From IMG/VR virus record IMGVR_UViG_3300009618_000029: a DNA stretch of 25,485 nt; one strand, given 5' to 3'. Both the position numbers and the translations under genes were made by a program. Origin of the DNA: a virus. Under the pieces are notes generated by a model. It saw nothing but the letters and a program-made list of their open reading frames with translations, was not told where the DNA came from and did no database searches. Shown here in pieces: positions 1,860 through 24,642 of this stretch; the first letter of the stretch is position 1; each line of letters starts with the position of its first letter.

Positions 1860-2745
1860 GGAACGCCACAGAGGTGTTGTCGAAGTCACCGGGGCGTTTC
1901 AACGGTTACAGCGGATCGCTGCGAAGGGCCCGGTAGCATTCTGCAAGGAGGCCCTGGGATTCGAACCCACGAAATACCAGGTCGAGTTCCTCGAAGACAA
2001 GGCGCAATTCATCGCCCAGCTGTGGTCCAGGCAGTCGGGGAAAGACTACGCAGCTTGCAGCAAGCTCTTCTGGTACGCCGTCGCCAACGATGGAGTGCAG
2101 CTGGCCGTTGTGGGTCCCAGCTTTCGGCAAAGCAAGCTGGTAATTCGCAAGATCAACTCATTCATCCAACAGAGCCTTCCCAAGGATGTCCCCTACCGGG
2201 AAATCCTAGTCGGAAGGAAACCGCTGAAGACGAAGGTCTCCCTAGTCAACGGCTCAATCATCGAAGCCTACCCATGCAACCCCGACACCATACGCGGGCC
2301 AACATTGAATGGAATCCTGGCGACAGAGTTCAACTTCGTCCGTGACGACGTCGACCTGTACGACGCTATTCTTTTCACACTTGGGACAACGAACGGTTTC
2401 TTCATCGCTAACTCGACGCCCTGGTCCCGCAATCACATATTCTATAAAATTTGCAACGACCCTGAGTTCGATGATTACAGCCGTCACCATGTCAACTGGG
2501 AACAAGCCCTGGAACCAAACGGACCCCTGAAGAAAGGGATCCTTGCGAAGATCAAGAAACAGTTCGCCAGCGACCCGTGGCGTTGGCGCCGTGAGATGGA
2601 AGCAGAGTGGAGCGAAGACGACGATTGCTGGCTCCCTACTTCGCTAATCACTGGCTGTACGGATCCGGAAATGGAGATTAAGGAATTTGGCGGCGAACTC
2701 CACAGCTTCTGGTCAACAGACCTCCCCCCAGACCTCCCGCGCTGA
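1825..2745 (+). CDS. terL: Terminase large subunit, N-terminal ATPase domain
   Basis: Q motif (PTKYQ), Walker A-like WSRQSGKD, GPSFRQS, TIRGPTLNGILATE (Walker B region), ANSTPW motif III, REMEAEW. Confidence 0.92.
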   Translation: MAWRRKLEKKVEERHRGVVEVTGAFQRLQRIAAKGPVAFCKEALGFEPTKYQVEFLEDKAQFIAQLWSRQSGKDYAACSKLFWYAVANDGVQLAVVGPSFRQSKLVIRKINSFIQQSLPKDVPYREILVGRKPLKTKVSLVNGSIIEAYPCNPDTIRGPTLNGILATEFNFVRDDVDLYDAILFTLGTTNGFFIANSTPWSRNHIFYKICNDPEFDDYSRHHVNWEQALEPNGPLKKGILAKIKKQFASDPWRWRREMEAEWSEDDDCWLPTSLITGCTDPEMEIKEFGGELHSFWSTDLPPDLPR

Positions 2746-3274
2746 CTACTGGGTCGGCGTCGACCTCGGGAAGAAAGTCGACTACAGTGTCGTGGCAGTC
2801 ATAAGGAAGGACGGTGACATCTTCCGCCTAGTGGGCCTGAAGATCTTCCCGCTCGGAACAGACTACACAGGCGAGACAGGCGTCATCAGCTTCCTCAAAG
2901 TCCTCAACCAGAAACTGCAAACCATCCACAAGATTCTCATGGACCAGACCGGCGTTGGAGAGAGCGTCGTAGAAGAAGCGAAGAAATCAGTACCCCACGT
3001 CGGGGGCATAATGCTCTCGGAGTCATCCAAGCAAGACATCATGAACTTCCTCAAGATGATGATGCAACAGAAACGGCTCCTAATCGCCTACCAACTCGAT
3101 GTAGCCAACGAACTGAACATTGAACGGTTCCAACTCACGAAGGCAGGCAAGATTCAGTACAGCCACCCAGACGGTACCCATGACGACCGCACCTGGGCCG
3201 TCGCCCTGGCCGTATTCGCAACAAGAGGCCCAACGGTCCCTGGTTTCAAACCGTACTCACGATCGTTTGGTTGA
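2687..3274 (+). CDS. terL: Terminase large subunit, C-terminal RNase H-like nuclease domain (+1 frame relative to the ATPase ORF)
   Basis: WVGVDLGKKVDYSVVAV, MDQTGVGESVVE and HPDGTHDDRTWAVALA motifs. Confidence 0.92.
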   Translation: MAANSTASGQQTSPQTSRADYWVGVDLGKKVDYSVVAVIRKDGDIFRLVGLKIFPLGTDYTGETGVISFLKVLNQKLQTIHKILMDQTGVGESVVEEAKKSVPHVGGIMLSESSKQDIMNFLKMMMQQKRLLIAYQLDVANELNIERFQLTKAGKIQYSHPDGTHDDRTWAVALAVFATRGPTVPGFKPYSRSFG

Positions 3275-3281
3275 GGCTCAA

Positions 3282-3518
3282 TTGTCGGCGAAGCACGTAC
3301 TCCTGCAGTTGCTGAAGTTCGGTGTCAGCGGACTCGTTGGTGTTTCGGTTAGCACCGTGCTCTATTACGGTTTGAAGGGCCAGCTACCGGACCTGTTCTG
3401 GACCGTGCTGTTGTACCGGTTCAATGCGGTTGATGTGGGATTCTATGAGCTCACCACAATCATCGGGGGCACCGTCCACTTCCTGTTGAGTAAGGTTTGG
3501 GTCTTCGAAAAGAAATGA
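3282..3518 (+). CDS. GtrA-like small membrane protein (half-length)
   Basis: QLLKFGVSGLVGVSV...IIGGTVHFLLSKVWVF resembles the GtrA N- and C-terminal motifs. TTG 3282 follows GAGG, and the stop overlaps the portal ATG. Confidence 0.6.
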   Translation: MSAKHVLLQLLKFGVSGLVGVSVSTVLYYGLKGQLPDLFWTVLLYRFNAVDVGFYELTTIIGGTVHFLLSKVWVFEKK

Positions 3519-5155
3519 CTAAGGCAAAGAACAAACCACCGCCTCGTAAGCGGCGTAAGCGTTCCGTAACAAACAAGCGAAACGCGACAACTAAGCGGCC
3601 GATGATGGCCACCAAACGGGCCGAGGTGAGAGACCATCGTCCCTTAGCAGGGACCAGGGTCGCCGGTTCAAGTGGCCTCGGCGACTTCTCAGCTCTCGAA
3701 CGGATCCCAGGCGTTACAGTGAAAGAGAACACGATCTCCTTCCCGTATCTAGGAACGCCCCAAGGCGTTCGTATTGCTGTTCATTCTAGCTCGAGGCGTG
3801 TTGCTGAAGCAGCCGCAATGCAACTAAGCGGCCTCCCTCTGAGTCGTCAGCTCTCAGCCGCCAAGTCCCAATATTATCTTGGGATGACGCAAACCATCTT
3901 CGACGCTTACAAGGGGATGGAGAAGCACTACCGCGCCTATCGTATGGATGCGCTCGTGCGCGGCTGCATCAACGCCCTCGCCTACTGGACCACGAAGGAG
4001 TCTTTCGACGCTGTTCTGGAACCGGTCGGCGAAGGCCTAACCCCGCAGCAAGAGGAAAAGATCATTGCTGATAATTTGCCGTTGAAACAGTGGATTGACA
4101 AAATCAACCTCCGCGTCGACCTCGACCATGTTCTGTATGCCGGCATCATCGGTGCCAAGATTTACGGCAAGAAAGGTTTCGAAATTGAACTCAACGCGAA
4201 GATGGAACCGAATCGCCTAATCTCCCTCCCACTCCTAACCATCTACGACCTGCGCCCCGACGTCGACGAGGACTGGGTGCTGCAAGGGTTCTGGTGGCGT
4301 GGCCAAAAAGACTTCTACAAACCAAGCGAGTTACTCTATTTCACAAACAACTCTCTCGAATCAGATTGGGAAGGCCTCAGCGAGATCGAACCAGTCCTAG
4401 ACGACGTGATCACCAGGGCCAAGATCCGCATAGAAGACCTCCAAGAGGCTGCGACAACTCTCTGGGCCGGCATAGCCATACACAGCCTAGATGTGGATCG
4501 CCTGCCTGCCGGATTAACCGACGCCGACGTGCAGGACCTCATTAACACGCACATCGCATCGCTGCGTCCTGGAAAGCATATTGCCACAGACAATCGTTGG
4601 ACCGTTCAGGTTATCGACATCAAGCCTGACCTCCCAGGCCTCGTCGCAGTCAAGACCGACCTAGACCAGGAGATCATTGGGAACTTTCAGGTTCCGAAAT
4701 TCATTCTTAATCGCACCGAAGCCGTGAACCGGGCAACAAGCTATAGTCAACTGGAGTCCTTTGTCGATGGCCCAATAACGGCTATTCAACGGTGGGTGCA
4801 GCTTATTGTTGAGCAGCAATGGTACGACCCTCTGACACGCTTCTACCTCAAGACTCCCACGGGCCAGGATCCGCCGGTGCGTGTGCGGCATCGGTGGCGT
4901 GAGATTCGCACAACCGACTTCTTCGCACTCCTCACCGCAGTCTCAGTTGCCTACGACGGTGGGCTGGGATTCGTGAACTTAGAGAAGGCGTACGAGATCA
5001 TGCGGGATGGACCCTCTTCCGCTTTTGACCCCGCGGAGGTCAAAGAGCCGGTAGCAACGCAGCCACCTAGCCCAACCGGCCCAGCAACTGAAGAGCCGGA
5101 ATCCCCCGCTGAAGTCAAAGAGGAAACGGAACAACAAGAGCTAGAAGGACAATGA
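3515..5155 (+). CDS. Portal protein
   Basis: About 546 aa, located after terL. Motifs IYGKKGFEI, WEGLSEIEPVLDD and IIGNFQVPKFILNRTEAVNRATSYSQLESF...AIQRWVQLIVEQQWY. ATGA overlap at 3515-3518. Confidence 0.88.
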   Translation: MTKAKNKPPPRKRRKRSVTNKRNATTKRPMMATKRAEVRDHRPLAGTRVAGSSGLGDFSALERIPGVTVKENTISFPYLGTPQGVRIAVHSSSRRVAEAAAMQLSGLPLSRQLSAAKSQYYLGMTQTIFDAYKGMEKHYRAYRMDALVRGCINALAYWTTKESFDAVLEPVGEGLTPQQEEKIIADNLPLKQWIDKINLRVDLDHVLYAGIIGAKIYGKKGFEIELNAKMEPNRLISLPLLTIYDLRPDVDEDWVLQGFWWRGQKDFYKPSELLYFTNNSLESDWEGLSEIEPVLDDVITRAKIRIEDLQEAATTLWAGIAIHSLDVDRLPAGLTDADVQDLINTHIASLRPGKHIATDNRWTVQVIDIKPDLPGLVAVKTDLDQEIIGNFQVPKFILNRTEAVNRATSYSQLESFVDGPITAIQRWVQLIVEQQWYDPLTRFYLKTPTGQDPPVRVRHRWREIRTTDFFALLTAVSVAYDGGLGFVNLEKAYEIMRDGPSSAFDPAEVKEPVATQPPSPTGPATEEPESPAEVKEETEQQELEGQ

Positions 5156-15697: not shown

Positions 15698-16027
15698 ATG
15701 GAGAAAATGGAGAACCGCAGTTACAAAGAATTAAGCAAGCAAGAACATAACTCCCCTACTCTTTTTCCGGACGCAACACAGCCTAGCGATAGCCCCGACC
15801 TACAATTCCCCATCACCTTTGGCGTCGTCATGAGCTGCAGACTTGGCGACGTGCAGAAGATCCGGAGTCAGATTCAGGAGGCTGGGGGACGCATAGTGTT
15901 CCAAACCGTCAGCAACAATTCACTCTTCCTTCTGCGTGCGGCGCAGGTGGAGAAAGCCCTTCAGGGCGACCTGAGTGTACTCACTGAGATTCACAATCGA
16001 AAAACGAGAAGGAGCGAAAAGACTTGA
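15698..16027 (+). CDS. Hypothetical protein; its 3' end is the first copy of junction repeat R
   Basis: 109 aa. The stop overlaps a TTG that starts a degenerate chaperone N-terminus (MSLEKR). Confidence 0.65.
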   Translation: MEKMENRSYKELSKQEHNSPTLFPDATQPSDSPDLQFPITFGVVMSCRLGDVQKIRSQIQEAGGRIVFQTVSNNSLFLLRAAQVEKALQGDLSVLTEIHNRKTRRSEKT

Positions 16028-16041
16028 GTCTAGAAAAGCGT
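15925..16041 (+). repeat. Junction repeat R1
   Basis: Encodes FLLRAAQVEKALQGDLSVLTEIHNRK, followed by GAAGGAGCGAAAAGACTTGAGTCTAGAAAAGCGT. Confidence 0.7.
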
Positions 16042-16655: not shown

Positions 16656-16843
16656 TGCCACGCAAGTGGACCGGATCCTGCAAGGTTACACTTGCCCAAT
16701 CACTGAACTACAATGGCGGAAGTTCATAGGCAGAAGACAGAAGGAGTGTGAAAAGATTTGAGTCAAGAAAAGCGTGAAGCAATCTTGGAAGCCAGAGCGG
16801 CCAACCAGAAACTCGGCGAACTCATCACGAAGGGCACCAAGTA
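16656..16843 (+). repeat. Junction repeat R2, including a truncated copy of the tail-chaperone 5' end (16758-16871)
   Basis: 16741-16843 matches 17821-17923 at 95/103 nt. The upstream part translates ATQVDRILQGYTCPITELQWRK, homologous to R1. Confidence 0.92.
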
Positions 16844-17726: not shown

Positions 17727-17923
17727 CGTCTACCTCCTGCCTGCCACGCAAGTGCATTGAATCCTCAAGGTGACACTTCCGCGATCAAGCTACAAAGGCG
17801 GAAGCTCACGGGAAGAAAACGAGGAGCGTGAAAAGATTTGAGTCAAGAAAAACGAGAGGCAATCTTGGAAGCCAGAGCGGCGAACCAGAAACTAGCCGAA
17901 CTCATCACGAAGGGCACCAAGTA
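17727..17923 (+). repeat. Junction repeat R3 (contains the functional chaperone start)
   Basis: Begins YLLPATQV (compare FLLRAAQV in R1) and continues into TTG 17838. Confidence 0.92.
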
Positions 17924-18221: not shown

Positions 18222-18373
18222 GTTCATTCGCTGAAGGATCCGTCTACTCGGCCCCTCTCGAAGTCCTAGTCTCAGAGTTCGGTTACAAGTTAACCGAACG
18301 AATGGAGGAACCCACTCGTTTACAACAAGAGTGGCTGCTTCTCATTTTTAAAAAACAGCATCCACGAAGGTGA
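18197..18373 (+). CDS. -1 frameshift extension of the tail chaperone (T-like)
   Basis: The -1 frame is open from the slippery site: PKSLKAKLSSFAEGSVYSAPLEVLVSEFGYKLTERMEEPTRLQQEWLLLIFKKQHPRR*. Confidence 0.75.
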   Translation, partial: PKSLKAKLSSFAEGSVYSAPLEVLVSEFGYKLTERMEEPTRLQQEWLLLIFKKQHPRR

Positions 18374-18391
18374 AAATGATTTGAGTACAAA
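18344..18391 (+). repeat. Junction repeat T1 (T-ORF end plus aborted TMP start)
   Basis: 44/48 identical to 20183-20230. Confidence 0.92.
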
Positions 18392-18530
18392 AATTCCCGC
18401 GAGGGGTTGGTACAGTCCCCTGATTTTGGATTAAGTGAATCGCACGCTGAGGAGTGCAGGGCTCTGAAGCTAGAGTTCAGATCGAAGTGGGATGCATTGA
18501 GAGTGTGCCTTGGTGACTACACATAAATAT

Positions 18531-18557
18531 AGAGTGATGACCACCGGTCATCTCTCT
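18531..18557. promoter_or_regulatory. Inverted repeat downstream of a TATA-like box, upstream of the DUF5678 gene
   Basis: AGAGtGATGACC-acc-GGTCATCtCTCT following ATAAATATA. Confidence 0.5.
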
Positions 18558-18573
18558 CTTGAGGAAATTCCCC

Positions 18574-18774
18574 ATGAAAGGAGAACTAGAGTACGTAATG
18601 TCAATTGGAGATAAGCTAGGGGACTATGTGAATTGCTGGATTGCTGTTGTGGACGACAAGATCATCGCTGAAGGCAATTCCGCGAAAGAGGTCTTCATAA
18701 AGGCCAAGCACCAGTACCCAGACAAGATCCCATTCGTGATGAAAGTTCCGTCAGATCCTGTAATGGTCATGTAG
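18574..18774 (+). CDS. DUF5678-like protein
   Basis: DYVNCWIAVVDDKIIAEGNSAKEVFIKAKHQYPDKIPFVMKVP. Confidence 0.75.
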   Translation: MKGELEYVMSIGDKLGDYVNCWIAVVDDKIIAEGNSAKEVFIKAKHQYPDKIPFVMKVPSDPVMVM

Positions 18775-18796
18775 TGGTAGCTTTCTTGGGCTTCCC

Positions 18797-19128
18797 ATGT
18801 CTCAAGCTGCGGGAACCAAGATTGTCTGCAAGTATCTCAGCTACCTTTTCACCCAGAAGGATGGAACTAAGCGTTACATTCAACTTCCTCTTGTGCACGT
18901 ACTTTTGGAAAGAGTGCCACAGTTACTAGTACTGCGACCGTAACTAACACTCGGACCATGAGCGCCACTCAGACCAGCAATTCGGTTACCTCGAGCACTG
19001 TGAGTGTTACCTCCACTAAGACCCTTTCAACTAGGAGTGTGACTTACACGCAGTCTGCTACGGTTACTAACACTGCGACGAGGTCTGTCACTGTAACTAT
19101 CACTACGACTGCTGCCACTACGACTTGA
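18797..19128 (+). pseudogene. Chimeric remnant: truncated N-terminus of a probable retropepsin-like partner joined to a Thr/Ser-rich surface-protein fragment
   Basis: ORF 18797-18943 (KYLSYLFTQKDGTKRYIQLPLVHVLLE) lacks any DSG/DTG motif. A different frame, 18913-19128, is a start-less SATVTSTATVTNT...TTTAATTT*. Confidence 0.5.
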
Positions 19129-19224
19129 CAGCTTAGCGAAGTTCGAGAGGGTTCTAATTTCCAAGCATACGACTTATATGGCATCGTCATCATGATGATA
19201 TAATGGACAACGGAGGATACGAAA

Positions 19225-19353
19225 ATGCTACCAAATCCACCCCCAACCTTGAAGGGGAAGGAAGCAGAGGCGTTCTTGAAAGACGCAGCGGAGCCTCCGA
19301 CAGAAGCGCAGAAGAGATTAGTCGAAGAGGCTTTGAAACGCTTCCCGAAGTAA
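19225..19353 (+). CDS. 42-aa antitoxin-like partner of the GNAT toxin
   Basis: GGAGG RBS. MLPNPPPTLKGKEAEAFLKDAAEPPTEAQKRLVEEALKRFPK*. A 12-bp palindrome TCATCATGATGA (19187-19198) lies upstream. Confidence 0.7.
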   Translation: MLPNPPPTLKGKEAEAFLKDAAEPPTEAQKRLVEEALKRFPK

Positions 19354-19362
19354 CTTATTTTC

Positions 19363-19877
19363 TTGTCCATCTTTTCCGTCGAAGAAATCAACCTACGCAA
19401 GCTAAGCATAGCTGACGACACAGGGTTCTTTGACTGCGGCAATTCAGACCTTAATGACTACATAAGATACCAAGCCAAAGACCAGCAACTTCAGCACGCG
19501 GCTGTCATTTATCTGGCCTTGTTCAACACGCAAATTGCAGGCTTCTTGAGTCTTGTATGAGCAGCATCGAAGTCAGTAGCATTGACGAAAAACACCGCCC
19601 GTTGCACACGCCGTACCGATACTATCCGTCATTGATGATTGGACGACTTGCTACTGAACTGCAATTTCAAGGCAAGGGAGTCGGCCGAATACTCTGCCTC
19701 TATGCCATCGCCACAGCTGCCAAAGTACGTGAGGAAGTTGCATGTCAATTTGTGATACTAAATGCAAAGATAGCGTCTATTCCTTTCTACGAACATTGCG
19801 GATTCAAACTGGCTGAAAATCAACCGAAAGGTCGGCGCGAGCCATTCATGTACTTCAAGCTTCCCATAAACACATGA
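19363..19877 (+). pseudogene. GNAT-family acetyltransferase toxin, split by a 1-nt deletion near 19553
   Basis: FDCGNSDLNDYI in ORF 19363-19560 and MIGRLATELQFQGKGVGRIL...FYEHCGF in ORF 19557-19877. Adding one T gives the continuous sequence GFLSLCMSSI. Confidence 0.8.
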
Positions 19878-19949
19878 GAATGGCGAAAAACGGGATAGGG
19901 TCTTCAGAATTGGAGGACGACAAAGCCAATTATCGTCCCTAGAGTTTGA

Positions 19950-20159
19950 TTAAGGCTTCTTGTCCTTGGATACGGGCGTCTTATCGTGGCTTGGGTGCTC
20001 GACCTTGAGGCTTGATGCGGTCTCTAGTTTCTTGATTCGTTCCTCTTGCTTTATCATTATCTCATTGGCAACTTTTTCTAGCCGATTAAATTTCTCTATG
20101 TCCCCTGTTTTCTTCGCGGAGCCTTTCGACTTCTTGCGCTTGCGCCAACATGGGACCAT
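19950..20159 (-). CDS. Lys-rich coiled-coil ORF, possibly a gene fragment
   Basis: IEKFNRLEKVANEIMIKQEERIKKLE. The 5' end abuts repeat T2. Confidence 0.35.
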   Translation of the reverse strand: MVPCWRKRKKSKGSAKKTGDIEKFNRLEKVANEIMIKQEERIKKLETASSLKVEHPSHDKTPVSKDKKP

Positions 20160-20182
20160 CCCTGCAACGAACCTGGCTTCCG

Positions 20183-20230
20183 ATTTTTAAGAAACACCAT
20201 CCACGAAGGTGAACGTGATTTGAGTACAAA
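20183..20230 (+). repeat. Junction repeat T2 (contains the true TMP RBS and TTG start)
   Basis: GAAGGTGA RBS at 20205-20212 and TTG at 20220. The upstream part translates LQRTWLPIFKKHHPRR*, compared with LQQEWLLLIFKKQHPRR* in T1. Confidence 0.92.
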
Positions 20231-22553
20231 CATCGGAAGTATAGTCTTCGCCATCCAAGCGGTAGAGCCGTAACAAAAACGGCGCCGTCACGAAGCAAGT
20301 AGTGTGATGGGGAAGATTAGCGCTTCAATGGGCCTAATGGGTATGGAGTTGCAGCAGCTCGGCCCAGGCTTCGCGCAAGTCGGCCAGATGATGCAAGGCT
20401 TCGCGGTTGCAGGATGGACAGGCGCGGCGGTTATTGGAATCGGCGAAGTCGTCCAAGGCATACAACAAGCCGTAGCCGCTGCGGCAGCTTCACAGTCAGC
20501 GTGGGCGATGCTTCAACAATCCCTCCACCTAACCGGCGCCGCCTGGGCTGCGCAGCAACCACAGATCCAGAACTTCGTCCAGGGCTTAGAGCAGGTTTCA
20601 ACCGTCAGCCAAACCGCTGCCGTTCAGGGGCTGCAACTTCTTGCAACCTACGGCATGAACGCAACGCAAGCGGAACAAGCGCTGACCGTCGCAACTAACC
20701 TGTCCGCCGCGAAGAATCTTGACCTAACCACTGCCGTGAACCTTGTCGGGAAAGCATTCGACGGTGTCACAACCACCCTCTCCCGGTACGGAATTATTAT
20801 TCAGACTACGACGAAGGCGAACGCAGATCTTAAACAAGGAACCGCCGACTTAACGGCTGCGATTCAGAAAGCCGGCGTCAACGCCCTACAACCCTTCACA
20901 CAGATACTTCAACAGGCAGGAATCAGCCTCACAACTACTACCGGGAAAGAGCTGACTGCGACACAGATTACGGGCGAGTTAGTTACCGCATGGAAAGCCG
21001 GCACCATCACCACATCCCAGATGAACGACATAACTCACGCCCTGGGCATCAACTTTGACTGGGCAACGGCTAAGGCGTCAGACTACAACGACATTATGGC
21101 GCAGCTGAACGATAAGTTCGGGAGCGCAGCTCAAACCCAGCTGGACACGTACGCGGGAAAGCAGCAGCAACTCACGAACGAATGGGCCGACCTCCAAATA
21201 CAAATTGGAGACATGCTTCTCCCCACACTCACATCCCTCACCAGTTGGCTTGACGACAACCTGCCCAAATTCACAAGCTGGATCACTTCACTAGCCCTCG
21301 ACCCAAGCGTCCAGACAACGTGGAGTAAATTCATGGGCGTCTTCTCGGGGTTCGTGGCTTCTGGCGACTTGACTGAACTCATGGGGTTCGTCTCTGAGGT
21401 TGCTAAAGGCGCAATTGAAGTAGCACTCGACCTCGCGATCACGGGCATGGATTTCTTAAACGCCATCATGACCGATGTGAAGTGGCTTCAAAGTGTAGGC
21501 ATCATACCAATGGGCGTCGCGACTGCACAGACGGCCCAAGTCATTCCTCAATCCAACGCCCCGACATACCAGGCCACACTTACGAATGTAACGCCACCGC
21601 CCGAAGCTTTCAGTCAAAAGAACCTAAACCCGCCGACCGACCAAATTTTCACTGGCGCGAACCAAGAACAAAACGCCCCCGGGTGGCTTCAAACGTACCA
21701 GCAGGACTGGGCTAATTTCACGACGGGCATCCAGAAGGGCGCGCAGACAGCGGGGCAAGATCTAACCGACTGGTGGAACGGCCTCTGGGCTAAGACCACC
21801 CAGGATACGACTACTGGAACGGACGACGTGACCACCGCAGCAGCGAGCGGGATGGGGCCGCTGGCCACTACCACTTTGAATATTGGAAACCAAATCAACA
21901 CTAACCTTGGCTCAACGTTATGGTCTAAAGTAACAACGGCCGTGCAGCCTGTGGCTGCGGCTCTCAGTAATACATGGTCGCAGATTCAAAGTGGGGCGCA
22001 GGCAGCGTTCGGCGCCGTTACCTCAGGTTTAGCGGCAATCCCGTCCACAAAGGACATCACTGTTAGTTCTGTGGTTTCGGATGCGGTTACTGGATTCGAC
22101 CAAGTCACCGCAGTTATCTCTACAATTCCGTCGATGATAGAAACGACTGTCACCACGATTGCGGATGATGCGATCAGCGTTATTCAAAACGTCATCAGTT
22201 GGCTCGACAAAATCCCCAGCGAGATTATGACCAGCATTAACGTGAGCCTTTCGGGGGCTGGACTTGGAGAATTTACAGGCCCAGGCTATCAACTCGGCGG
22301 CATGGTTCCCACAACGGGGATCTACATGCTTCACGGCGGCGAGGAGGTTCTAACGCCGGCGCAACAGGCAGCCATAGGCGCAGGTCTAACGCCACCCGCA
22401 GCGCCAACTTCCCAAGGAGGATCCGGCCCGATGCAACTTCAGAACCAAACCGTCGTTCAGTTGGATGGGCAAACGGTCGCAAGCATACTTGAGCAGAAGA
22501 TTATTCGGCAAAGAAAATTTGGTTCAGGCTACAAATACACGGCGGTAACATGA
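20220..22553 (+). CDS. Tape measure protein (769 aa after removal of a 24-nt intron; ORF caller starts at 20304)
   Basis: Long Ala/Gln/Thr-rich helical protein with a C-terminal GYQLGGMVPTTGIYMLHGGEEVLTP and VVQLDGQTVA motif. The start MSTNIGSIVFAIQAV is in frame with 20304. Confidence 0.92.
20266..20289 (+). other. Predicted 24-nt bulge-helix-bulge mRNA intron
   Basis: Central helix CGGU(20260-63)/GCCG(20284-87), bulges AGA(20264-66) and UCA(20288-90), intron stem GCCGU/ACGGC and an in-frame TAA at 20271. Splicing gives GCG GTA GAC GAA (AVDE). Confidence 0.8.
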
Positions 22554-22554
22554 G

Positions 22555-24642
22555 TTGACGCTCACACAGCGGTCCTCGGGCATCATTTACAGTAGCGATT
22601 TAAGTTCGCTCGGTAATTGGAAAACCACCATTTGGGATACGCCCAACGATAATTATAGTCTGGGAACATGCACCGTCCCAGGTTTCTTTGAGACTACGGC
22701 GTTCAGCAACGGCAACGCGTGGGCTCTTTTCTACGCGTGCTTCGAAGCCTACGCTTACTTCTATCAGTCCTTCAACCTCGGAACCGGCGCAGTTTTCCGG
22801 CTGAATTACAAGACGCCAATTCCGCCAGCTGCAGGTAGGTCGAACGTTGCCGCACTTAAAGTGGGAAGCACCAGTTTCGGTACCGTTGGTGAAGCAGCTT
22901 GGACAGGCATACAGGGTACTCTACCGGGTGGTACGCAACAAATTCAGATCGGTTACGCTTTCGCCCTTAGCCCCGATACTTCTGGCCAAAGCGTAGAGAT
23001 CGCTGTCGAGGACCTACTGATCTACTCGTCTAACAATGTAACTATAACTGGGTTAGCTGGCGGTCAGAAAGTTTCACTCTACACGGCTGGACCCGGCGGT
23101 GGCTTAGTCGGGTCTGCCACCTGTGCTGGTAACGCCACATCAGTCGTCATCAGTCTTGCGAGTGTTTGGGCTGCTTTGCCCGCGCAAATATACGCGATGG
23201 TCTACGCCGCCGATGGTTCAACTTTAGTTGAGCAGACGCAGCCTCAAACAATGTGTGGCGGCGACGTTTGGAATTGGACACCGCTTCAAACGTTGAGTCT
23301 CACCGTGGATAATTTTCAGATTTACCAGAAGAACGCCCCATCCAAAGCCCAGCCGACAACTGCAGTTATCACGGCTACGCTGATCAATTTAGCTACCAAG
23401 TTACCGTATCCTAGTAAAACAATTAACTTCTCAACCTCCCTCGGAACACTCAGCGCGGCAAGTGCGACCACAAGCGCCGCTGGGTTAGCGGTCGTATCCC
23501 TCACCTCGACCACCCCGGGCCTCGCTGTGGTTCAAGCAACTTGGACGGGCGACGCTACCGTGGGCGCTGCAACCGGCTTCGTCAACGTTCACGTATTCTA
23601 CGATGCTGAGGGACCGGATGAAACGCAGCCTTTCCAACTATACGTTGAGGGCTGCCCGTATTCCTATGTGGGTGGAACCGGTGGCACAAGTCATTACGGG
23701 CAGAACTATCAGCAGAAGATCGAAACCTTCACGTTCGACCTGCCGCGTTATTATCCAACGCTTACGCCGCGGGGAATCGTTCGGGTCTATCGGTACGGTG
23801 TCTTAGAGTACGCTGGACTCCTAGAGGATATTAAGCGAACTATAGGCAGCTCGTACAAGATTACTCTTTCAGGTTCTGACGCCTCCAAACTCTTAGACAC
23901 CCGAATAATTCAGGAAGCGGAGTTTCTTGCGGCAAGCCCAGAGTTCATCATCAACAGCCTACTAACCAATTACCAATGCGGCATAATGGTGGGACAGCTA
24001 GGCACTACGGGCATCACGTTACCAAGCGTACTTTTCACTGATGTTACGCTTCGCGCTGCGATCCAGCAGGTTTGCGGCCTCATTGGTTGGACGTACCGAG
24101 TCAACCCGAACTTGACCCTTGACTTCGCCTCGCAGTTCGGAGGCGGCACATCGAACGTTGCCTTCAATGAAGGCGATACGGTGGGTGACTCAACGAGTGA
24201 ACTAGATTTCTCCACGATGGGCAACCGAATGTACCTGGTTGGAAACGGTATAGTCAGCATTCAAAGTGACAGCGATAGCATCAACAAATACGGCTTAATT
24301 GAACAGGTGGCATTCCAGAAAACCGTCACCGACGCAACCACCCTAGCCATAGCCTGTCAGGCTATGCTCGCGGATTCCGAAAACACCGAACTCATCGCCC
24401 AAATAACTGTGAGAGACACGAATCCTCCAGACACTTTCGGGCCTGAGGATTCGATTACCGTCAACATTCCCGACCTCGGGTTAGCTGGCCTATACACCGT
24501 GGTTCGCATTCAGCGGGATCTAAGTGACCCGACGATTGCCACAATCGACCTGAACCGGCGTATGCCTCAACTGTGGGAGCTTGACGAAACCTCAAGCCGA
24601 ATGCTAAGCGACCTCAGCGCCGGAATCACCCTGGCAGCATAA
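22555..24642 (+). CDS. Tail tip/hub protein with an Ig-like (Big-1-like) domain
   Basis: AVITATL...KTINFSTSLGTLSAASATTSAAGLAVVSLTSTTPGLAVVQAT (Big-1-like), then a hub-like C-terminus (VRVYRYGVLEYAGLLED...GSDASKLL...VNPNLTLDF...YGLIEQV...LYTVVRIQRDL). Confidence 0.75.
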   Translation: MTLTQRSSGIIYSSDLSSLGNWKTTIWDTPNDNYSLGTCTVPGFFETTAFSNGNAWALFYACFEAYAYFYQSFNLGTGAVFRLNYKTPIPPAAGRSNVAALKVGSTSFGTVGEAAWTGIQGTLPGGTQQIQIGYAFALSPDTSGQSVEIAVEDLLIYSSNNVTITGLAGGQKVSLYTAGPGGGLVGSATCAGNATSVVISLASVWAALPAQIYAMVYAADGSTLVEQTQPQTMCGGDVWNWTPLQTLSLTVDNFQIYQKNAPSKAQPTTAVITATLINLATKLPYPSKTINFSTSLGTLSAASATTSAAGLAVVSLTSTTPGLAVVQATWTGDATVGAATGFVNVHVFYDAEGPDETQPFQLYVEGCPYSYVGGTGGTSHYGQNYQQKIETFTFDLPRYYPTLTPRGIVRVYRYGVLEYAGLLEDIKRTIGSSYKITLSGSDASKLLDTRIIQEAEFLAASPEFIINSLLTNYQCGIMVGQLGTTGITLPSVLFTDVTLRAAIQQVCGLIGWTYRVNPNLTLDFASQFGGGTSNVAFNEGDTVGDSTSELDFSTMGNRMYLVGNGIVSIQSDSDSINKYGLIEQVAFQKTVTDATTLAIACQAMLADSENTELIAQITVRDTNPPDTFGPEDSITVNIPDLGLAGLYTVVRIQRDLSDPTIATIDLNRRMPQLWELDETSSRMLSDLSAGITLAA

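Follow-up and report, generated by a model that had tools for sequence, protein, structure and literature searches.

How can a virus make its tail tape-measure protein (TMP) if the frame of this protein meets a stop codon almost at its beginning? The question is raised by the virus record IMGVR_UViG_3300009618_000029 (the window, that is, the whole stretch of 25,485 nucleotides analysed here), in which the frame of the TMP gene opens at TTG 20220, reads MSTNIGSIVFAIQAVEP and then stops at TAA 20271-20273. GTG 20304 and ATG 20307 belong to the same frame, and this TAA is the sole stop between. We consider it very likely that 24 nt around the stop are an intron of the tRNA type, with a bulge-helix-bulge (BHB) structure, spliced by the endonuclease EndA and by RtcB. 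Judging from the comparisons described below, host tRNA-splicing enzymes very probably have to mend the TMP mRNA before the full protein is made. Such an intron had been proposed in an earlier note made from the window alone, and everything that the note said about the sequence (the TTG 20220 frame, the TAA at 20271, all the RNA elements listed) is correct.

The window corresponds to the minus strand of contig C4 (82242-107726) in archaeal genome G000, which has 2.65 Mb in 59 contigs. Pfam matches identify terminase, portal and capsid genes, a head-tail virus module; together with the TMP and a PF06605 tail gene they are the reason why we regard the window, by gene content, as an integrated tailed provirus of a peat-soil Bathyarchaeia archaeon. 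The 749-aa protein was recognized as TMP through PHROG families phrog_58, 991, 1272 and 28 (E from 2e-11 to 1e-7; the best, about 1e-11, with phrog_58 and phrog_991), the PF10145 match being weak. Its gene follows a tail-chaperone-like gene with a frameshift-type extension and precedes the PF06605 tail protein gene, as in Caudoviricetes.

Comparison with Uninterrupted Tape-Measure Genes

The homolog set consisted of 43 related loci from metagenomes, IMG/VR and genomes, and three more were obtained via the protein database. About 37 loci are uninterrupted, as are L085 and L086. Against the uninterrupted genes (L004, L013, L085, L086 and about 30 others) the segment 20266-20289 is an exact insertion of 24 nt. 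These genes have a ribosome-binding site of the GGUGA type, start with ATG, GTG or TTG, and share the N-terminus M-S-x-x-(I/L)-G-S-(I/V)-V-x-x-I-(K/Q)-A-(V/I)-D-E-A-S-(S/G)-V-M-G-K. The possibility, named in the earlier note, that homologs begin at MGKI with no upstream segment is thus not what we see, since the conserved upstream N-terminus is present.

Archaeal EndA cuts after nucleotide 2 of each 3-nt bulge. By this rule the junction in the window is GUA G|AC GAA, which encodes V-D-E where the homologs have (V/I)-D-E, and the predicted 5′ cut coincides with the boundary of the indel. Removal of the 24 nt gives AIQAV-D-EASSVMGKI, as had been foreseen. The same note had predicted, before any comparison was made, that intronless homologs would read AV(D/E)EAS, and A(V/I)DEAS is what was found across the junction. 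In the homolog L004, which comes from a congeneric genome, the uninterrupted TMP of 772 aa starts with MSVSVGSIVMTIQAIDEASGVMGKI, and the window without 20266-20289 reads MSTNIGSIVFAIQAVDEASSVMGKI, so that GAC is restored where the homologs have GAT or GAC. By the same rule the consensus is recovered in three more contexts of the TMP gene and in 14 alleles of polB and 13 of glyA, to which we return below.

The sequence on the 5′ side of the insert has the appearance of a working gene start. A GGTGA-like or GAAGTGA motif lies ahead of the exon-1 start in all homologs, interrupted or not, and the Shine-Dalgarno (SD) motif, the start codon and the open exon-1 frame are kept in 6/6 distinct interrupted alleles. 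When exon 1 is compared with that of L013, whose TMP is 82% identical, six of the eight changed codons are synonymous. The V-M encoded at 20304-20309, which gene callers take for a start, are internal residues kept in all homologs; the gene-caller products are 748 aa (P0001) and 738 aa (P0003, P0004) long.

How old is the insert? A TMP gene from another metagenome (L084, 96% identical) carries the same 24 nt without a difference, whereas the insert is absent from L013/L046 (82% identical), L086 (77%) and L085 (74%). This distribution, with the insert shared at 96% identity and missing at 82% or lower, marks the 24-nt intron as a recent gain of this virus lineage. Its 21-mer had 0 matches in IMG/VR, and BLAST of the 24 nt against the host genome returned the provirus copy and chance 10-12-mers only.

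Geometry and Fold of the 24-nt Insert

In the window the central 4-bp helix (H) with two 3-nt bulges on opposite strands is formed by CGGU/GCCG, AGA and UCA, and the inner helix (h′) is a good 5-bp stem. The outer helix (h) has one directly stacked base pair (G20259-C20291), and CUUCG 20246-20250 could pair with CGAAG 20291-20295 as a distal 5-bp helix; both features are as the earlier note described them. Hence the strict hBHBh′ form is not present and the relaxed HBh′ form is, the relaxation being on the 3′ side. Enzymes of the (alpha-beta)2 and epsilon2 types accept relaxed BHB forms in which one of h and h′ suffices.

In the minimum free energy (MFE) fold of 20236-20305 one finds the expected 4-bp helix, lengthened by a G-U pair, together with the 5-bp stem and the AGA bulge. 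The extra G-U pair would cut bulge 2 to 2 unpaired nt plus C. The fold has an energy of -17.7 kcal/mol versus -12.1 +/- 2.3 for shuffled sequences (z = -2.4), and 0/200 shuffles were as stable.

When strict geometry was combined with the requirement that two reading frames be joined, the 24-nt site was the one outstanding match in the window, with 61 codons open upstream and 754 downstream. The site stands above chance because of this context, namely the joined frames and the exact insertion relative to homologs.

A Second Family of Probable Introns in Related Tape-Measure Genes

Eight other loci, with four distinct sequences among them, carry a different insert of 21 nt in the TMP gene. It bears one or more TAG stops and has the inner hairpin GUAGC-AGCA-GCUAC. 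It occupies two sites, B being 6 nt downstream of A (Table 1), and at each junction the EndA rule gives the residue that uninterrupted homologs have at the same position. Downstream of the insert the TMP frames are open for at least 675 and 826 codons.

The intronic strand of helix H tracks the exon sequence with which it pairs: pair 2 is C-G in L055 and G-C in L029, a compensatory double change. Covariation was scored on an ungapped alignment of the four 21-nt alleles alone; a joint MAFFT alignment of both families misplaced the loop gap and was not used. All 40 of the 40 pair cells hold standard pairs, and two pairs, in H and h, are changed on both sides, whereas slid controls gave 20-57% pairing and 0 compensatory pairs. 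Folded locally, the L055, L029 and L034 inserts each give an MFE structure in which hBHBh′ is complete. The expectation in the earlier note of covariation among intron-bearing relatives therefore holds for this sister intron and for the host introns described in the next section; the 24-nt intron itself is a single sequence and so shows none.

By our estimate, a random insertion would have a 4-bp exon-intron helix in register in about 1-2% of cases per context ((6/16)^4, or 0.012 with at most one G-U pair). Such a helix is present in four TMP contexts, one in the window and three of the 21-nt insert.

The 21-nt intron is 95-100% identical among its carriers, while the adjoining exon 2 is only 49-87% identical, and on the TMP tree its carriers are interspersed with relatives that lack it. 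High identity amid diverged exons and scattered carriers therefore point to mobility or strong constraint, not to random damage, and the pattern suggests that the 21-nt element is a mobile mini-intron. Its 16-mer core gave 25 IMG/VR matches, 0 of them in BHB context, which by a rough estimate is about the chance number; among 401 genomes of the class, the intron was found only in the TMP of G004.

Some irregularities of these genes are of another kind. The G004 copy (L055, from a Bathyarchaeota metagenome-assembled genome, MAG) has, besides its 21-nt intron, two collinear frame changes at about 3411-3471 and 4352-4409. These two, and a BHB candidate at L055:4021-4040, were rejected as introns: they are collinear frameshifts, probably sequencing or assembly errors or decay. 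A candidate at L034:4708-4727 was rejected as well, being collinear with L033.

Splicing Enzymes and mRNA Introns of the Host

If the TMP transcript is to be spliced, then we can ask: Does the host have a suitable enzyme, and does it splice any mRNA of its own? Genome G000 encodes two EndA paralogs (L056:1213-1785 and L057:1204-1767), both about 190 aa long and both composed of an N-terminal domain (PF02778) and a catalytic one (PF01974). Among solved relatives, one of them is closest to the catalytic subunits of the heterotetrameric enzymes of Aeropyrum, Sulfolobus and Pyrobaculum. By this homology the host EndA is a crenarchaeal-type two-subunit enzyme, and the genome encodes RtcB too (PF01139, L058). 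The earlier note had supposed a crenarchaeal-type enzyme accepting relaxed HBh′ motifs, and these genes are consistent with it. The two-subunit arrangement is associated with broad substrate specificity (PMC5829648). ARAGORN predicted 30 tRNA genes in G000, with introns in 25/30, many of 12-35 nt; its intron boundaries are imprecise and some calls (introns >1 kb) are doubtful. Two host tRNA-Ser genes have clean BHB introns of 15 and 18 nt.

Two protein-coding genes of the host are interrupted by similar inserts. In the family-B DNA polymerase gene (polB) the site is occupied by a BHB insert in 14/19 relatives examined, with lengths of 20, 20, 20, 20, 21, 23, 24, 24, 24, 26, 31, 32, 32 and 32 nt. 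All excisions restore LVCSFGYLG (LVCS|FGYLG), identical to the uninterrupted orthologs, and the inner helix covaries: GCCGC/GCGGC in G000, GCCGU/ACGGC in G015, and GCCG/CGGC or GCUGCC/GGCGGC in others. In the serine hydroxymethyltransferase gene (glyA) inserts of 25-34 nt were found in 13/23 relatives examined, across three families, and all restore NRYAEGW. Here the inner helices are unrelated in sequence and always paired, and in G050 helix H also shows a compensatory change. Given that both are conserved housekeeping genes and that a minority of the inserts have a length divisible by 3, the polB and glyA inserts must, on this comparative evidence, be removed from RNA; mRNA splicing of BHB introns is thus, as far as the comparison of relatives tells, at work in the host clade.

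The G015 polB intron (A GCCGU CGAAAA ACGGC GAGC AA) has the stem and an A-rich loop in common with the viral intron. The likeness is suggestive of common origin; it is not proof, the GC stems being short.

One relative, G030, has no intron at the usual polB site (L099, about 1480-1500). There the codons for F and G are separated by a single extra base (tcc ttt c GGC), which breaks the frame and could be a sequencing error or a scar. A BHB candidate in the host pyrG gene (C21) was rejected, the frame being open through the motif.

Proposed Mechanism and Its Alternatives

The explanation we prefer has the following steps. The TMP gene would be transcribed together with the 24-nt insert. In the RNA, exonic CGGU and intronic GCCG would form the 4-bp central helix, flanked by the AGA and UCA bulges and the GCCGU/ACGGC hairpin. 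The host two-subunit crenarchaeal-type EndA would cleave after the second nucleotide of each bulge, and RtcB would ligate the exons and probably circularise the 24-nt intron. The spliced mRNA would then be translated from TTG 20220 behind GAAGGTGA, giving full-length MSTNIGSIVFAIQAV-D-EASSVMGKI... The intron itself, which resembles the polB micro-introns of the host clade, would be newly acquired in the virus lineage.

Several points weigh against this explanation. Cutting and ligation of the TMP transcript are deduced from sequence, and the substrate specificity of the host EndA from homology. The outer helix has just 1 bp beside the 3′ bulge, a relaxed motif which needs a broad-specificity enzyme. 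The motif alone is at chance level: a loose BHB scan of the window gave 211 matches per strand versus about 178 in shuffles, and a genome-wide strict scan with the ORF-joining test gave 172 versus 161-164 in frame-shifted decoys, which is no excess. Because motif scans stand at the level of shuffles and decoys, we counted only BHB candidates confirmed by homologs; two matches of the genome scan were so confirmed (polB and glyA). The 24-nt intron has one sequence variant, that of the window and L084, and therefore no covariation in its own helices. Finally, the two viral introns, of 24 and 21 nt, both have a length divisible by 3, although nothing in RNA splicing demands it; this could be chance (about 1 in 9 for two effectively independent lengths) or a hint of a constraint.

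Might the insert be a disruptive hairpin that is never spliced? Exon 1 would then be a dead remnant of 17 codons, and either the TMP would be made from GTG 20304 or ATG 20307, shorter by 25 residues, or the provirus would be defective. This we judge improbable. It is true that ATG 20307 is in frame and could serve without splicing, that the conserved M means an ATG is always at hand, and that gene callers begin the TMP at 20307 or later. However, there is no SD-like motif in the sequence ahead of ATG 20307, in contrast to GAAGGTGA ahead of TTG 20220, and the 24 N-terminal residues are kept in all of the roughly 40 homologs, so that their loss should be costly. The conservation of exon 1 between the window and L084 (1 synonymous change, against 31 changes in the next 450 nt) is of little power for so recent a gain (1 change in 70 nt versus about 5 expected), and the TMP start region is not pristine, having received a 1.8-kb insertion too. 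Chance insertion, on the other hand, would seldom place the helix in register, yet this is seen in four contexts with a compensatory change, and on comparative evidence a like architecture is removed from the host polB and glyA mRNAs.

Resolution during translation, either by readthrough of TAA (plus 8 residues) or by ribosomal bypassing as in phage T4 gene 60, appears to us very unlikely. Both viral inserts are in frame, with lengths divisible by 3 and a stop beside a hairpin, and so have a superficial likeness to recoding signals. Nevertheless, no in-frame matching take-off and landing codons were found, the sole repeated CCG lands out of frame, and in the L055 insert one TAG codon directly follows another. 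Readthrough would put EP?QKRRRH or K?QQLRQ in place of a conserved residue, and no uninterrupted homolog has anything that corresponds to these products. Recoding also leaves the covariation of helix H with the exon unexplained, and the sister introns of the host include lengths of 20, 23, 26, 31 and 32 nt.

We found nothing in favour of an artefact of assembly or sequencing, or of an error limited to a single MAG of one strain, and this reading is refuted: contigs from four runs (soil 2014, wetland 2017, peat 2018, peat 2020) are identical over 20000-20600 (601 nt) and include no indel variant or copy without the insert, 20 DNA runs (soil, wetland, peat; 2014-2020) contain 100% of the sampled words of 19900-22600, and L084, an independent JGI contig, has the same 24 nt amid diverged flanks. 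No RNA runs containing this region were listed.

If the 24 nt are spliced as we propose, what do they do for the virus? The earlier note had imagined a late-expression switch or a host-range filter, and either is possible as a conjecture. The sporadic distribution suits a selfish element that is tolerated no less well, and we lean towards an intron that is tolerated or selfish rather than serving the virus in regulation or as a host lock.

Layout of the Locus and Neighbouring Genes

The coordinates of all elements discussed are collected in Table 1.

Table 1. Elements of the tape-measure locus and of the related viral and host introns. Positions are those of the window unless a locus or contig is named.
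Feature	Position	Strand	Remarks
Left copy of 58-nt direct repeat	18337-18394	+	3′ end of native tail-chaperone extension (...LLLIFKKQHPRR*) plus first TMP codons
1.8-kb cassette	18395-20175		DUF5678 gene, split GNAT acetyltransferase, small ORFs; between chaperone gene and TMP
Right copy of 58-nt direct repeat	20176-20233	+	88% identical to left copy; holds SD and functional TMP start
Shine-Dalgarno-like GAAGGTGA	20205-20212	+	Direct reading; ends 7 nt ahead of TTG start
Exon 1 of TMP	20220-20265	+	TTG start, 15 codons MSTNIGSIVFAIQAV, plus G, the first base of the split Asp codon
Helix H, 5′ strand, exonic: CGGU	20260-20263	+	Pairs with GCCG 20284-20287 (C-G, G-C, G-C, U-G); in MFE fold
Bulge 1, AGA	20264-20266	+	3-nt bulge in MFE fold; predicted 5′ cut 20265/20266
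Candidate BHB micro-intron, 24 nt	20266-20289	+	20267-20290 equivalent, since both flanking bases are A
Inner hairpin h′, GCCGU-AACAAAA-ACGGC	20267-20283	+	Stem GCCGU 20267-71, loop 20272-78, ACGGC 20279-83; 5 bp, 7-nt loop
In-frame TAA within the intron	20271-20273	+	Closes unspliced exon-1 frame after 17 codons
Helix H, 3′ strand, intronic: GCCG	20284-20287	+	In MFE fold
Bulge 2, UCA	20288-20290	+	Predicted 3′ cut 20289/20290
Exon 2 of TMP	20290-22553	+	Opens with AC of Asp codon, then EASSVMGKI...; stop included
GTG 20304 / ATG 20307	20304-20309	+	Starts chosen by gene callers when the intron is ignored; rival start
21-nt insert, L055 (= L005)	Site A, L055:2960-2980		H UCGU/GCGA; bulges AUA, AUU; junction GUA U|UU, V-F
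21-nt insert, L029/L031	Site A, L029:2960-2980		H UGGU/GCCA; bulges AAA, AUU; junction GUA A|UU, V-I
21-nt insert, L028, L034/L043	Site B, L028:2966-2986, L034:2123-2143		H UGGC/GCCA; bulges AAA, AUU; junction GCA A|UC, A-I
polB intron, 24 nt	G000:C46:8896-8919 (L087:2097-2120)		Inside KxxxNSxYG motif, family-B DNA polymerase; predicted RNA junction UCAU|UUGGA
glyA intron, 32 nt	G000:C45:3291-3322 (L108:492-523)		Serine hydroxymethyltransferase; junction NRYAE|GWVG; predicted RNA junction GCGGAA|GGAUGG

Immediately upstream of the TMP start, the 1.8-kb cassette lies between the two copies of the 58-nt repeat. The left copy includes the native end of the chaperone extension, because L004 has this sequence joined directly to the TMP start. 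Neither L004 nor L013 has the cassette, which is shared by L084 and all four metagenome contigs. The cassette looks like a moron or toxin-antitoxin-like insertion with target duplication. Its DUF5678 gene is at 18559-18774. The GNAT acetyltransferase is split into frames 19363-19560 and 19557-19877, which overlap in ATGA and have about 18 profile positions missing between them; a frameshift, a pseudogene or another cause may lie behind this. The BHB-like motif at 19540-19579 was rejected as an intron, the two frames not being joined by it.

Further upstream, 16742-16843 is repeated at 17822-17923 (93%), and shorter repeats occur at 16016-16041, 16750-16775 and 17830-17855. The repeated segments are the 5′ ends of small genes that start at 16774, at 17838 and, in a third case, near 16020, which suggests by sequence similarity that the small genes are tandem paralogs of the tail-chaperone-like gene. 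The large terminase also seems to be split, into overlapping frames 1825-2745 (the ATPase part, PF03237) and 2687-3274, and no BHB candidate was found at this overlap.

Comparison with Known Systems

The BHB intron in the cbf5 pre-mRNA of Crenarchaeota is said to have been described by Watanabe in 2002. Its splicing was confirmed experimentally (Yokobori 2009, PMC2738675), and according to PMC7714728 no other BHB intron has been reported within the coding sequence of an archaeal gene. Like cbf5, the TMP gene is an archaeal protein-coding gene with a short BHB intron whose presence varies among related lineages, and the cbf5 intron is excised by the tRNA splicing endonuclease and ligase. In contrast to cbf5, a host gene of hyperthermophiles, the gene here is a virion structural gene of a mesophilic Bathyarchaeia provirus; its intron has 24 nt, lies 15 codons into the gene and contains an in-frame stop, and we infer its splicing by comparison.

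Non-canonical tRNA micro-introns of TACK archaea were reportedly described by Marck and Grosjean in 2003. Such introns are cut by (alpha-beta)2 EndA (PMC3241643, PMC5829648). The viral element resembles them in its 4-bp helix, two 3-nt bulges, short inner hairpin, size range and relaxed outer helix. It differs in its substrate, which would be a viral mRNA, and in its central helix, whose exon strand codes for protein and is not part of a tRNA.

Among archaeal viruses, ORFs of the rudivirus SIRV1 contain 12-bp insertion/deletion elements for which an intron-like nature was proposed (Peng et al. 2004, as relayed in PMC2738675). On this second-hand account, they resemble our elements as very short inserts, multiples of 3, in coding genes of archaeal viruses. 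The TMP elements differ in having BHB geometry, stop codons and exon-intron covariation, none of which we know of for the 12-bp elements of SIRV1. In Haloferax volcanii the HVO_1309 mRNA has a BHB intron in its 5′ untranslated region (PMC7714728). That case is similar in that EndA acts on an mRNA and the removal matters for expression, although there it concerns the untranslated leader of a host gene and here, as predicted, the coding part of a virus gene.

Self-splicing group I introns and inteins of phages (T4 td/nrdB/sunY, SPO1 polymerase) are autocatalytic, hundreds of bases long and often accompanied by homing endonucleases. They too interrupt a virus gene by an element that is removed after transcription or translation. 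The TMP element, in contrast, has 24 nt and would depend wholly on host enzymes.

In the literature searched, no report was found of BHB introns in archaeal virus genes or in polB or glyA of Bathyarchaeia, and the word "intron" is absent from two papers on Bathyarchaeia viruses and proviruses (PMC10848311, PMC11705971). The earlier note's statement that no equivalent in structural genes of archaeal viruses was known to it agrees with this search. In this literature, splicing of the tRNA type by protein enzymes is documented for one archaeal coding sequence, cbf5, and for no gene of a virus.

Significance

For annotation the consequence is immediate: the TMP comes out of gene callers truncated, and the polB and glyA genes of the host come out split. 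With two unrelated mini-introns at three sites inside a span of 10 codons, and with matching introns in host genes, short synthetic RNAs would allow direct tests of intron gain, of mobility and of the substrate range of the Bathyarchaeia EndA.

More tentatively, and with doubts of our own, we may imagine that Bathyarchaeia and their tailed viruses share a pool of mobile BHB mini-introns of 20-35 nt, which would travel among polB, glyA, tRNA genes and conserved sites in virion genes including the TMP. Such viruses would be locked to hosts with a broad-specificity EndA, and the inserts may persist by interrupting nucleotide stretches that are otherwise conserved, such as CRISPR protospacers or targets of recombination, while the protein stays unchanged. 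If the splicing proposed here is true, an essential component of the virion relies on the RNA-splicing enzymes of its host, and this would be a new kind of virus-host dependency in archaea.

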